Part shown: in pieces, positions 1,457 through 24,046 of the stretch
Layout of the letters: each line of letters opens with the position of its first letter
How positions within the stretch are numbered: position 1 is the first letter of the stretch
Assembly (NCBI GenBank): GCA_964016885.1
Contig: OZ024743.1
Location: 162,440,001-162,504,000 of the forward strand
DNA from: Eledone cirrhosa
Lineage: Eukaryota
Direction: 5' to 3'
Length of the DNA: 64,000 nt
Notes under the pieces: model-generated
The model's input: the letters and a program-made list of their open reading frames with translations, nothing else
What the model was told of the DNA's origin: nothing
The model's database searches: none
Program-made: the position numbers and the translations under genes

Positions 1457-1670
1457 ATAGGAACAAGTATGACCCCGACGGCAGAGCTCAAGCCGTTTTG
1501 ACGGCTAATTCTGGACTAAAAAAAGGTTTTAGTCCAGAATTAGCCGTCGAAACGGCTTGAGCTCTGCCGTCGAGGTCATACTTGTTCCTATTACCCACTC
1601 TACTACCCTAAGTATTGAGTACTTTGGTGCGTTATGGTCTATCTGGTTCCTTACCACATTTCTTTCGTTA
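1457..1670 (+). mobile_element. Fold-back mini-element family A, copy 1 (PLE-type 3' end with inverted arm, in (TA)n)
   Basis: Arms 1457-1521/1527-1591 plus a unique ~80-nt tail; (TA)n on both sides; GAAAC-GGC...GCC-GTC resembles HHR stem III and cleavage triplet; homologous copies at 8261 and 23853. Confidence 0.8.
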
Positions 1671-1738
1671 TATATATATATATAATTAAAATAAAATGAC
1701 AGGAGGCTGGACTTGTGTAAATCCTTGAAAGGTTTATT

Positions 1739-1796
1739 ATACTATGATCATTTCAATGACCGGGTTCCGTATGAATCCGGTGATATCATCAGGTAT
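1739..1796 (-). ncRNA. Type I hammerhead ribozyme motif (PLE-associated)
   Basis: Minus strand ATAC-CTGATGA-[ACCGG/CCGGT stem II]-GAAAT-GATC-ATA-GTAT; palindromic stem III ATGATCAT; (TA)n about 55 nt downstream. Confidence 0.7.
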
Positions 1797-2224
1797 TCGA
1801 AATATAATAAATGAATGTAATAGATAGAATCCATGGGGCTGAAAATCAAAGACCGGAGGACGACCGCCATCCAGCATCTTCCACCTTTGCCGGTCGCCCT
1901 CAAGTGAGGTGGCTAAAGCTTATAGTGTGCTACTACCGGTCAAATAGAGGAAAACAGAAAGGAGGAGGAAGATAAGTCAGCGTTAATATCATGCCACAAA
2001 AAGAAAGACAGAAAGAAGGGGGAAGAGAAGGAAGAAGAAGAAAAGTCAGGGTTAATGTCGAGCTACAAGAAGAAAGACAGAAAGAAAGAGGAAGAAAGAT
2101 CGGTACTAATGTCAGACTACAGTCAGGCCAGGAATGGCGCGAAAAAAGATTTTTCTCAGGGACCCGTATCTTAGCAGAGGTATATATAGTGGGGGTCTGT
2201 ATGTTATAATGTGTGAGCAGAAGA

Positions 2225-3096
2225 TTGGAACGTTACATTTTTGTTTAGATTTATAGGATGAAGTTAAAAAATTAATATTTAATATTAACATTATAAAATT
2301 AAAGAAATTAGAAAATTGAAAGTTAAAAGTTTAACATTTTTAAGGTTGCGAGGTTTAAGCAAAGAAAGGGTATTTTATGAAGAAAGGGTATTTTATGAAG
2401 AAACTTAAATTTTATTATAGAGTAAAGATTATGTCTTTGTTTAGCAGTCAAACAGCATGCGGCGACTACAGGCTTGCGCAGCCCATCCACTCCGAGTGAT
2501 ATCGCCTAGCGAAAGATATGGAAATCGATTTTTCCGAGCACTCTAGGAATGTATAACAGGCTTCAGGTGCGCCAGCGGGAAGTCAGCACGCATCGTTAAG
2601 CCATCCTTGTACAAAACCAGTACTATTCATTTACCCAGGAGGGGGATTTGCTTAAGTAGAGGGAGGCGTGATACATCTAATAGTTATGATTAGATCTGTA
2701 ATTTAAAGGTACTATATGGCGGTCAAAAAACCGGCTGCGCGCCGGGCCCCTGGGGCGAATCAAACCACTCCGAGTAGTTTCATTTACCGAAAGAAGGGGA
2801 AATTTATTTTTCCAAGCACTCAAGGTAGGCCTATGCGCCAGGGGGCCGGTCCCGCCGCCAGGAAAACCAACCCAACAGTCCGACAGAAAAGTTGGAACGT
2901 TAAATTATTGTTTAGATTTATAGGATGAAGTTGAACAAATTCAGAATAACATTATAAAATTAAAGAGTAAGAAGATTGAGAATTGAACAATTAGAAAATT
3001 GAAAATTAAACATTTTAAAAACTTTTTTAAGGTTTTGGGTTGCGGGGTTTAGTTAAAGAAAATCTTTTATGAAGAAACTTTAATTGTATTATATAG
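2225..3096. repeat. Diverged ~200-bp AT-rich direct repeats flanking a GC-richer core
   Basis: 2225-2420 and 2892-3096 both start ttggaacgtta...tttagatttataggatgaagtt and end gaagaaactt.aatt.tattata. Confidence 0.75.
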
Positions 3097-4148
3097 ATCC
3101 TCTATAAGTTATCTTGAATGAATATATATACCTTCTACTTTGACCACTAGCCACGTGATGATTCTTAGCCATTTTTTAATTCATTTCTGGCGGTGATCAC
3201 TGTGGAAATTTTAGTCCAAACCTGAGGAGTCTTTTGATAAGTTCGAAGCCTCGTGGATAATACCAGGATCGGATATATCCACAAAGTGCGAGCGAAACTG
3301 TCGGCAGTCGGGACTAGAGGAATTTTGGTAAAGTTCACATGCATTTTTTCTTCTAACTTATATTTTAGACCTAGCTCCGTTTAATTGATTATTTGTCTAG
3401 TTAATTTCTACGGCTAAAAAAATAACAAAGTTTCACCTAAAGTGGAATTTTGAATTAATTTAGATGATAAATGAACAAAATATATTATATATTGATGTGG
3501 ATATACGCATTTTTAATACATTTTAATACATATTTAATAGATATTTAATAAACATTAAAGATGAAATGTTTAAATGTTGCATTATAATGCTAAATAGGAT
3601 ATATACGTAACGATATCTTACCTTATAATAAAATATTGTCATAATCTAGAATTAATTAAATTAAATTAATTTAAGCGTATAAATTTGTAATGAACTTAAA
3701 TATTCGATTGCCGTAGAAATTAATCTATGCCTAATAATCTAGATATATTATAAACTTATAATTAATTAAAGCGTAATCCAATACAAGCGGCATTCATTGA
3801 TAAATAATAAGAATAATTTTTGAATTTTCTGTCTAGGATTTGAATACAACGTGTTTTTTTTTATTCTCTCCTTTACTTTATCCTTTCCTTTTCCTTTTCT
3901 TCTTTTCTTTATTTCCCTTCTTTTCTCTCCGCATCTTCCCTTTTTTCTTTTCTTTATTTCCCTTCTTTTCTCTCCGCATCTTCCCTTTCAACTCCCCTTT
4001 CTATATTTCTTCGTTGCTTTACGTCTTCTTCTCTAAGTTTATCATATTATTTGTGGTATATAAATGTTGAGTGTTGGGGAAATAACTTACTGCCACTACA
4101 GGAATTGAAGATCCAAGACCTTAGCGGTATATCGTATAACCAATCTCT

Positions 4149-4219
4149 TATATATTTTATCTGATGAAAACGTACTGAAACACCATTGTACCTTTGAAAT
4201 ATGTATAATAAAATATATA
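4149..4219 (+). ncRNA. Type I hammerhead ribozyme motif at a PLE 3' end
   Basis: 12-bp stem I (tatatattttat/ataaaatatata), CTGATGA 4161-4167, GAAAT 4196-4200, AUA triplet; downstream sequence similar to the PLE ends at 8650 and 18500; ends in (TA)n. Confidence 0.75.
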
Positions 4220-4281
4220 CTTTGGTTATGATAATATTTCTCATTTATCAATGTTTTGAATAATAATATATATATATATAT

Positions 4282-22053: not shown

Positions 22054-22741
22054 GTTCAGATAAGTAGGTAGAGCAAACGTTTCTTTTTAATATAAGAGGT
22101 GAAAATGAAAACAAAAGAGGTGACTATTAGACGAAAACTAAATATCATGTTGATGAAATTCCTCCCTACAAATTACAAATGGTTCCAACATCGTATATAT
22201 AGTAATAGCTGGAGAACAAATGATTACTATATTGACTGGGGGTGGGGTATTTTTTGTTTTGTTTTTTAGCGTTGCCGCTGATATATTTCACGAACATCTA
22301 CAATCTTCATGCAATTTTGAAATCGATTTAATTACGTGATTATACAACCATGTTATTTCATCTTCCGACCACATTTTCTCTTGATTTAATCAAATTAGCA
22401 GAAGTATTTGCACATATTCTGGACACAATTCGAAATTCAAATCAATATAATACTGATATATTAATGTGTGTGTGTGTCCCTGTATATGAGTGGGCGTGCG
22501 TTTGTGTGCATAAATGCGCTAGCAGCCAAAGTAATAACACACACACACACACACATGCTTACACACGTGCACAAGTAGAGCTCTTTTTACAAAACGGTTT
22601 TTTTTTCCATTTCAGGTAGACGCGCGCCATCATCCACTTTTCTAAAAAACAAATCATACACAAAACGCCAGCACCAACAGTTTTGCAAGAGATGTCAACA
22701 TGAATGGACCTGTTATTTTTACCTAAAGACATTTTTTCCAA

Positions 22742-22900
22742 TTCCATCCCGTCCGTCCCCTCAATCTATTTTATTTCTCATTCTTTCTTCTGATGAAGGA
22801 CTAGCGTCCAAAACGTTAAGACCTGCTATATCAAGCGTTAACCTAATATATACCTTCCATATACTGTACCGATTATCTTATTATTTCTGTTTACCTTTTA
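22742..22900 (+). mobile_element. Family-B PLE 3' terminus with mutated HHR
   Basis: CTGATGA-A-GGAC/GTCC-AAAACGTT (G12 lost); homologous to 8072-8238. Confidence 0.75.
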
Positions 22901-23139
22901 CATACATATATATATATACCCATTCGTTCTGAAATGGTGATACTAATTAGCATATAATTAGCACTCATGTTGGTAATTAATTAAAATATGTTGTAGCCGA
23001 AGTGTATGATAAAGTTATATTTGTATAAATACAGTGTGTAACCAAGACCCAGCGTATATAGATATATATACATATTTAATTTGTAGGCATGTAAACAAGA
23101 CAGATAATACGAATTTTCCTATAGATTGAAAAAAATTAT

Positions 23140-23192
23140 AAACATCTTTCATCGACTTTCGGAATTTATTGAACCCTCATCAGAAGGCATGT
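23140..23192 (-). ncRNA. Degenerate hammerhead-like motif
   Basis: CTGATGA (23183-23177), GG/CC stem, GAAA; weak stems I and III; lies between TA-rich tracts. Confidence 0.4.
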
Positions 23193-23246
23193 ATGTCGTC
23201 TAATGAATCATAAGGAAACGTGTTATATATATATATATATATATAT

Positions 23247-23512
23247 AATTAGGTAGTAACATGTGCTTACGCCGTACGTGAATTAGTCTGTTAGTTGGGA
23301 TTGTTTAAAAAAACCCTCGGGTTCGTGTCCCATGTACGTCAATATTCATTCTTTTTTCCATCCAGATTTTTTTAAAAATATAAATTATAATAAAAGTCCC
23401 AATTAATAGACAAATTCTATTTAGTCAAATATGGCGTAAGCACATGTTACTACCTAATTTTCAAATTCGCTAGCCGTTTATAAACAAAGCCTGCTTTGTG
23501 TCTCCTTATTTA
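23247..23512 (+). mobile_element. Fold-back mini-element (arms ~23247-23308/23390-23459 + tail)
   Basis: Perfect 27-bp outer inverted repeat aattaggtagtaacatgtgcttacgcc; (TA)n on the left, (CA)n(TA)n on the right. Confidence 0.6.
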
Positions 23513-23852
23513 CACACACACACACACACACACACACACACACACACACACACACATATATATATATATATATATATATATATATATATATATATATATA
23601 TATATATATATATGTATGTATATATATATATATGTGTGTGATATAGAGATTAGAGCAAACATCTCAAAATTATTTTTGAAAAGCATTAGAAATGCGCAAC
23701 CGGTAAAATCTTAAAACTAAAACTGAATAACCAATACTTATTACTAATTTATACTTATTCCTGATTAAACTATTTTTCACTGGGAAAAAATTTGTCAGCA
23801 TTTTCTTTTCCTTTTTACTAATATATATATATATATATATATATATATATAT

Positions 23853-24046
23853 ATAGGAGAAAGTATGACCCCGACGGCAGAGCTCAAGCCGTTTCGACGG
23901 CTATTTCTGTCCAGAAATAGGCGTCGAAACGGCTTGAGCTCTGCTGTCGGGGTCATACTTTCTCCTATTACCCACTCTACTACCCTAAGTATTGAGTACT
24001 CTGGTGCGTTATGGTCCATCAGGTTCCTTACCACAACTCCTTTGTT
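23853..24046 (+). mobile_element. Fold-back mini-element family A, copy 3
   Basis: Arms spanning 23853-23968 with a near-zero loop, same tail, (TA)n on both sides. Confidence 0.8.

Follow-up and report, generated by a model that had tools for sequence, protein, structure and literature searches.

Head-to-head 3' fragments of Penelope-like elements in (TA)n tracts of Eledone cirrhosa, probably formed by reverse transcription primed at both target ends

The window analysed here is a 64-kb stretch of the genome of Eledone cirrhosa; all positions are those of the window, and genome-wide counts cover the 3.0-Gb genome. A sequence-only reading had described eight fold-back insertions from about six families, and inverted repeats were confirmed at all eight positions. 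They belonged to six sequence families: A (1457, 8261 and 23853), B (12055), C (13557), D (14306), E (20986) and F (23247). The A, C, D and E insertions were flanked by (TA)n on both sides. The repeat content of the window looks octopus-like. These fold-backs are an abundant and largely ordinary insertion structure of Penelope-like elements (PLEs), and their core structure is known PLE biology. Observed directly were the parent elements, a pair of fixed 3' ends in each family, abutment to (TA)n, junctions that were specific to each locus, and a 5' stop that was sharp in A and C and looser in E. We consider it probable that these head-to-head pairs of 3' fragments, from PLEs and from two passenger repeats, arose in (TA)n by reverse transcription primed from both target ends, followed by joining of the two cDNAs.

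The seven short cassettes folded far more stably than shuffled sequence (the 4.2-kb D element was outside the fold set); the fold of 1457-1670 had -133 kcal/mol, against -54 kcal/mol for the best of 20 mononucleotide shuffles. Of the 26 inverted-repeat clusters present in a contiguous 214 kb, 18 fell within the 37 kb around the eight fold-backs, and the window is therefore a local hot spot. An automatic census flagged 7 of the 26 clusters (random control 3.7%); it overlooked 8261, 13557 and 20986, and one of its entries was a long-range pair. Among the 150 of 200 matches listed, Rfam gave no hammerhead for the A, C, D and E copies, and the hairpins had sub-threshold microRNA-type matches only.

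Judged by their sequences, the three A copies and C, D and E are PLE 3' ends, each made of a pseudo-long terminal repeat (pLTR) and a tail, with Hydra-clade motifs. The PLE origin that had been proposed earlier was supported by the link of all four families to open reading frames (ORFs) for reverse transcriptase (RT) and GIY-YIG. A pattern reading across the tail end of family A was found at 323 places in the genome, several of them about 3.54 kb apart. The family A parent contained intact frames of 784 codons (717 aa when read from the first ATG) with RT plus a C-terminal GIY-YIG domain, and formed arrays of 3.53-kb head-to-tail units terminating in family A sequence, so that tandem units with a pLTR were present. 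The protein carried the motifs RWR, DKT, CNCx5C, CNLC and CKH, and CCHH was absent. Pfam and PDB searches with this protein gave no match; its top homologue carries PF01541, and the A domains were read from motifs. In passages of PMC8557442, Hydra-clade PLEs are described by insertion into (TA)n and by RWK, DKT, CxCX5C, CxxC and CxH motifs without CCHH. By the agreement of motifs and (TA)n insertion with this description, family A would be a Hydra-clade-type PLE. At L101-L106 and L108-L109, family A units stood two to four in a row; these arrays were 98-100% identical to the L103 copy, with several frames open, and their family A is likely a recently active element. A type I hammerhead fold with a U3-A8 core was predicted in the family A pLTR.

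In the family A numbering, +1 is the first tail base and the predicted hammerhead cleavage lies at about -19. The hairpin at 1457 consisted of a tail-less inverted arm (1457..1520, minus strand, element +1 to -62) and a direct arm (1528..1669, plus strand, element -62 to +79, then (TA)n), in which the predicted initiator A lay at 1531, the 3' hammerhead half at 1549-1571 and the 79-nt tail at 1591-1669. The second hairpin (8261..8486, plus strand) had its inverted arm at 8261-8323 and its direct arm with tail at 8345-8486, and the junction between 8323 and 8345 was made of locally repeated 10-11-nt pieces. In the third (23853..24046, plus strand), the inverted arm spanned 23853-23909 (+1 to -55) and the direct arm with tail 23909-24046 (-58 to +79).

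The 3' ends of family A were fixed at 0 and +79. Genome-wide, the exact tail-less end adjoined (TA)n at 1,404 places (control 0), which supports the (TA)n targeting proposed earlier. A 21-nt core of the arm occurred 25,928 times (control 0); the density in the window is local. The class was also present in Illumina raw reads of three other samples, where (AT)n followed both A ends, in about 2,800-3,200 and 8,200-11,500 reads of each run, and where reads switched strand at -59/-58.

For the comparison of arms, the first 90 of 100 listed tail-less places gave 82 arms after removal of duplicates, with two insertions counted from both sides. The partner of the tail-less arm was tail-bearing in 47 cases, tail-less in 5 and another piece in 11; in 19 none was adjacent. 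The hairpin junctions were of 57 types among 62. Five types were seen twice; in two of these the subfamilies joined are not the same, and one is a local duplicate lying next to its twin. The junctions had overlaps of 1-8 nt or short inserts, which were frequently copied from neighbouring sequence. At a site that splits the subfamilies 23:22, both arms carried the same base in 22/22 hairpins, which fits one RNA copied twice or a single active subfamily. Mismatches between arms were mainly C>T/G>A (30/60). A>G accounted for only 4/60, so the arm mismatches showed no sign of A-to-I editing, and re-insertion of edited hairpins was rejected.

At L103-L104, the inverted arm was tail-bearing (+81 to -202) and the direct array ran from -1957 to a tail-less end. 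The D element of the window had a like layout, with a short tail-bearing arm and a long tail-less one, and in neither case can one arm be a copy of the other. In addition, 12 of the 47 tail-bearing A partners started at -4 or further downstream, two of them with short sense pieces in the junction. Separately, L019, L083 and L087 contained internal repeats that extended from about +172..+194 back to about -46..-62; they suggest that a third zone of initiation lies near the ATG and that template jumps occur at the 5' stop.

The 5' ends of the tail-less A arms were also concentrated: among the 82, 14 ended at -59 and 9 at -58, and 38 lay within -62..-54. Partners of tail-less arms began at -59/-58 in 16 of 63 cases, and A arms joined directly to (TA)n or to unrelated DNA stopped at about -59 as well (L013, L017, L018, L021 and L236). 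Position -59 is the A of TTAGTC/TCAGTC, and TAT(T/A)TAAA starts 29 nt above this initiator A in L103, L089 and L094. A TATA-initiator distance of this size is standard in RNA polymerase II core promoters. Among 125 arms spanning the -59 region, a set that includes top-hit loci, 40 continued upstream; the base preceding the initiator A was otherwise T in 50, C in 16, G in 16 and A in 3, of which T and C can be templated. The extra base was thus more often G than A (16 vs 3, P = 0.002), and a hand tally of an independent 100-row list gave 19 G vs 2 A. Cap copying leaves an extra G. The TATA spacing and the extra G would fit a capped mRNA start at -59. Passages of PMC2377424 locate the Penelope promoter in the pLTR. 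The stopping of both A arms at one point, a predicted initiator 29 nt below a TATA box, appears to be new.

Position -59 lies inside hammerhead stem II, and with the predicted start at this place the A cassettes therefore retain no more than the 3' hammerhead half. The A cassettes are without TATA box, 5' hammerhead half and sequence past the tail. The earlier view of the fold-backs as ribozyme cassettes thus goes too far for A, which had only half a hammerhead, and for F, in which none was found. Hammerhead cleavage was tried as the main cause of the 5' stop and rejected, as 0/82 A arms ended at the cleavage site (shortest -20); two top-hit copies, L009 and L024, do end there.

Families C and E continue into RT/GIY-YIG ORFs (L296, L297; L144, L302, L303; tblastn), and L297 has the arrangement pLTR-ORF-pLTR of family C. 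Tandem copies of D or E were not found among the fetched loci. The motifs of the E ORF were CNCx5C, CGLC and CNH, and those of the D ORF DKT, CQLC and CLH. An inverted 5'-truncated copy with an optional tail at one end was seen in A, C, D and E. Hammerhead core motifs were present in these four families, and the predicted fold was hammerhead-like in A, C and D and partial in E. As had been noted, the hammerhead parts read from the loop outward. Unlike in the common layout proposed earlier, C, D and E carried their tail on the left arm, which is the minus-strand one.

The 3' ends of family C were at -96/0 and those of family E at about -144/+3. The tail-bearing arm of C (13559..13810, minus strand, 0 to -255) contained a hammerhead core from 13756 and a tail of about 96 nt; its tail-less arm (13807..13999, plus strand, -298 to -96) had a partly deleted hammerhead core. 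The tail-bearing arm of E (20983..21251, minus strand, +3 to -265) had a tail of about 145 nt, and its tail-less arm (21279..21478, plus strand, -346 to -147) contained an initiator-like motif at 21288-21297 and a hammerhead core from 21298 to 21419, whose stem II is long. Among the top-hit loci, 12 C arms ended exactly at -323, at a TCA motif, and seven E ends lay at -328 to -335, a looser stop than in A and C.

Family D consisted of an inverted tail-bearing 3' copy (14306..15222, minus strand; tail 14306-14397, hammerhead core 14497-14453) and a direct 5'-truncated PLE (15218..18549, plus strand) with a broken RT and GIY-YIG ORF, a 3' untranslated region, a pLTR and a tail-less end at (TA)n. 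The broken ORF (15218-17519, plus strand), which a dispersed repeat interrupts at 16856-17066, means that the fold-backs are not non-coding throughout, as had been supposed. In the flanking (TA)n at 14179..14245 (plus strand), the final 12-21 nt of the D tail were read from the sequence three times in inverted orientation, at scattered places; these copies likely reflect abortive priming at the other target end. D-pLTR-related fragments with hammerhead cores were also observed at 4151-4267 and 8484-8717, and the latter shares one (TA)n tract with the 8261 hairpin.

Family B was a 438-nt head-to-tail tandem unit with a complete type I hammerhead, and its copies exceed one unit; 1,196 exact cores were counted genome-wide. 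Its 3' ends were at about +180/+212, about 35 nt apart. The inverted piece (12051..12473, minus strand) began at the +214 end adjoining (TA)n, the longer of the two 3' ends, and had a hammerhead core at 12264-12231. The direct piece (12466..12783, plus strand, -22 to +295) had a complete type I core at 12489-12522 and a right end that is cut off; what had been taken for its tail was the interior of the next tandem unit, ending at 12783. Two B pieces started at +34/+35, the predicted cleavage site, too few to count. With short tandem units, a type I hammerhead and a length too short for RT, B is to be classed from its sequence as a retrozyme-like repeat. The earlier suggestion of a retrozyme-like class was thus right for B, but it is the tandem monomer that propagates and not the hairpin. 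Beside B, a decayed Hydra-type ORF (10535-11980, minus strand) was observed, 41% identical to the A protein.

Family F was a 277-nt unit containing a tRNA-like part with A and B boxes, and tandem dimers occurred. ARAGORN called a tRNA in four of nine F loci. A leader preceded the tRNA part, and internal T runs were present, so that stops of RNA polymerase III are expected. No CTGANGA..GAAA hammerhead core was found in this family. The copy in the window (23247..23512, plus strand) had an inverted tail-less arm at 23247-23297, a B-box-like motif at 23320-23330 and a direct arm with a 52-nt tail; the 3' ends of the family were at -52/0, and 0/30 copies continued into other sequence. In both B and F, two 3' ends adjoined (TA)n, and the inverted copies occurred in either order and with variable inversion points. 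They therefore carry the PLE insertion signature, which suggests that they were mobilised in trans by PLE proteins.

The insertions may be explained as follows. In a tandem array, the TATA box and initiator within one pLTR would start the mRNA belonging to the next unit; in A this start would be at -59, inside stem II. The RT-endonuclease would cut both target strands, and both ends would prime at two fixed RNA sites; with protein bound to the leader near the tail, initiation would take place at +79 and 0. Both cDNAs, of 140 and 60 nt, would run to the capped 5' end, often with a base added opposite the cap, and would be joined via microhomology or small templated inserts. Priming on a downstream pLTR would give long ORF-containing copies such as D. 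B and F would likely borrow the PLE machinery as tandem monomers. Whether such twin strong-stop-like cDNAs on a capped PLE leader produced the tens of thousands of 200-nt hairpins, with B and F mobilised in trans and F a PLE-dependent element resembling short interspersed elements (SINEs), is in our estimate about evenly balanced. The hairpins are likely dead ends, because the A cassettes are without TATA box, ribozyme 5' half and beyond-tail sequence, and no sign of their re-transposition was seen among the 62 junctions.

Several observations weigh against double priming on a capped leader. The -59 start site and the cap are deduced from DNA; the extra G is not significant against A and C together (P = 0.087), and six of the 19 extra-G cases in the 100-row list allow a reading as blunt joins. 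The TATA box is weaker in older A copies (L031 and L011), and C and E show initiator-like TCA motifs with no clear TATA box in the upstream sequence examined. A step in the depth of restriction-site-associated (RAD) reads is probably confounded by AATT at 7764, which resembles the library cut site (enzyme inferred). Among the fetched loci only, no PLE partner with the 3' end of B or F was seen, and F may be served by a partner among the long interspersed elements (LINEs). The non-overlapping arms of short hairpins may stem from later deletion across the palindrome, and by the 22/22 concordance a single RNA is not distinguished from a single active subfamily or from gene conversion. This concordance also agrees with self-priming, in which a single cDNA or an antisense template is copied back and the tail is removed by endonuclease resolution, as proposed in passages on rotifer Penelope (PMC3846280) and, for the tail, of PMC8557442. 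A family C hotspot lies within an 8-bp palindrome, and 11 of 100 listed junctions fit intramolecular fold-back of a single cDNA at a 4-bp hairpin; self-priming may therefore contribute and account for a minority of hairpins. As the general origin it is rather unlikely, since it does not produce L103-L104, D or non-overlapping arms, and A arms stop at about -59 also where they are joined straight to (TA)n or unrelated DNA. Double priming, which had been proposed earlier, is supported by these arms that cannot be mutual copies. That the hairpins form a non-autonomous class, transcribed and re-inserted as hairpins, is very doubtful. The copy number is very high, five junction types recur, and B has complete hammerheads and propagates; against this stand the many distinct junctions, the mixed-subfamily pairs and local duplicate among the recurrences, the half ribozyme of A, and the variable inversion points of B and F as tandem monomers. 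The earlier alternative of integration by-products fits better than that of a self-propagating class.

Double priming could also be kept with a different cause of the shared 5' stop, namely stalling of RT at hammerhead stem II or a splice acceptor. Position -59 forms a bulge within the distal helix of stem II, the sequence ahead of it resembles a T-rich tract ending in TAG, and a Penelope intron lies in this region according to passages of PMC2377424. However, RT would have traversed stronger stems before -59, splicing would leave a constant upstream exon whereas the upstream bases vary, and C and E stop upstream of the hammerhead at TCA motifs; with a TATA spacing and an extra G that fit a capped start, stalling or splicing seems quite improbable. 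An artefact of assembly or long-read fold-back, or an origin as miniature inverted-repeat transposable elements (MITEs), were named earlier as grounds for refutation, and their probability is negligible. The hairpin at 1457 was spanned by no contig or read in four runs (flanks skipped as repeats), but the raw reads of three samples contained both ends and the strand switches, and the class is therefore not an assembly artefact; arm differences, moreover, are mainly C>T/G>A decay. MITEs or fold-back DNA transposons were rejected as a candidate: the two termini differ in sequence in most copies (47 tail-bearing against 5 tail-less partners of the 82 arms), the junctions vary, and lengths range from <0.1 to >10 kb instead of being uniform.

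Other repeats were observed in the window. A further PLE-like 3' end at 5712-7860 had a weak GIY-YIG match and a hammerhead-like variant near 7821. A small repeat family adjoined microsatellites at about 8061-8240, 13467-13540, 22762-22922 and 46559-46719, with a minimal hammerhead-like motif in the 8061 and 22762 copies; it is probably another PLE end. Outside the eight elements, an HH9-like hammerhead (20647-20718, E 3.1e-6, below gathering score), a core-like motif at 19946 (minus strand) and an inverted repeat at 20109-20473 were seen. A near-perfect 142-bp inverted repeat with a 10-nt loop lay at 1070-1363, its left side without an abutting microsatellite. A LINE 3' end at 24134-25228 (zf-RVT, E 1.4e-5), which we take to be Dong/R4-like, was flanked by (CATA)n tracts and had a fold-back at 24265-24376 that includes the microsatellite. 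A PIF1-helicase (Helitron-like) remnant was located at 55338-59344 and an RT-bearing LINE remnant at 41242-43041.

For the formation of inverted copies and tails in PLEs, self-priming and endonuclease resolution are the published guesses. The thousands of independent insertions described here lead to base-level predictions: RT starts at 0 and +79, an mRNA start at -59, and priming of both strands. The intact 717-aa ORF of family A and its near-identical copies can be used to test them. If the reading is true, the genome records RT start sites, promoter and cap at base resolution. Family B would be footprint evidence for the proposed mobilisation of retrozymes by PLEs, and to judge from family F, a passenger may require neither a hammerhead nor clear similarity to a pLTR. 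Such hairpins are likely mis-annotated as MITEs or, given their sub-threshold Rfam matches, as microRNA precursors. The mechanistic reading is new and testable, and it would help to explain the insertion of these poorly understood elements.

The literature already describes inverted pLTRs, optional tails, insertion targeted to (TA)n, and hammerheads. The elements resemble the Hydra-clade PLEs in passages of Craig et al. (2021, PMC8557442) in the single ORF, C-terminal GIY-YIG, motif set (RW(K/R), DKT, CxCX5C, CxxC and CxH, with no CCHH), pLTR hammerhead, (TA)n, tandem and inverted copies, and optional tail. They differ in unit length (3.53 kb here vs generally <3 kb) and tail length (79-145 nt vs 30-40 nt), and tens of thousands of 200-nt hairpins with a common predicted start have no counterpart in its main-text passages, supplements aside. 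No publication was found on run-off of PLE hairpins to an mRNA start or on a tRNA-containing PLE passenger; supplements, outside the search, may list these families. Passages on an octopus repeat annotation list recently active Penelope families (PMC13282606).

According to passages of Frangieh et al. (2024, PMC11167929), Poseidon PAc of anole cuts and extends both strands, and two internal starts near the pLTR-ORF junction define the tail, which supports the chemistry proposed here. The AT-rich target and the two start sites are shared with the elements described here, and its protein binds near the same junction. That system was studied in vitro and belongs to a different clade, and the passages connect it neither with inverted copies in genomes nor with run-off at the 5' end of the mRNA. 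Like Penelope of Adineta vaga and Drosophila virilis (PMC3846280 and PMC2377424, in part), the present elements have a head-to-head inverted pLTR, a tail at one end and a pLTR promoter; inversion was ascribed there to self-priming with variable sizes, whereas here a fixed 5' stop and some non-copy arms are found. Twin priming is treated in passages of PMC10191854.

Unlike in L1 twin priming, both priming sites are fixed here and most arms overlap. In the L1 process, as reportedly set out by Ostertag and Kazazian in 2001, both target ends prime cDNA and an inversion is left; the second priming is said to occur at variable internal sites, with segments that usually do not overlap. In Schistosoma, minimal hammerheads occur in pairs on opposite strands, 100-700 bp apart, in passages of PMC4209133, and the U3-A8 core variant given there is also present in intact family A. 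Family B is like the animal non-LTR retrozymes in passages of PMC7229834 and bioRxiv 10.64898/2026.07.22.740005, with head-to-tail units that each have a type I hammerhead. Mobilisation by PLEs is proposed there from co-occurrence and phylogeny; B displays a PLE footprint of two 3' ends, an inverted copy and (TA)n. Sm-alpha of Schistosoma is a hammerhead repeat with a tRNA promoter. Family F is like tRNA-derived SINEs in its tRNA-related part with A and B boxes, but it differs from them in the pre-tRNA leader, T runs, tandem dimers and ends of PLE rather than LINE type, and no hammerhead core was found in it.

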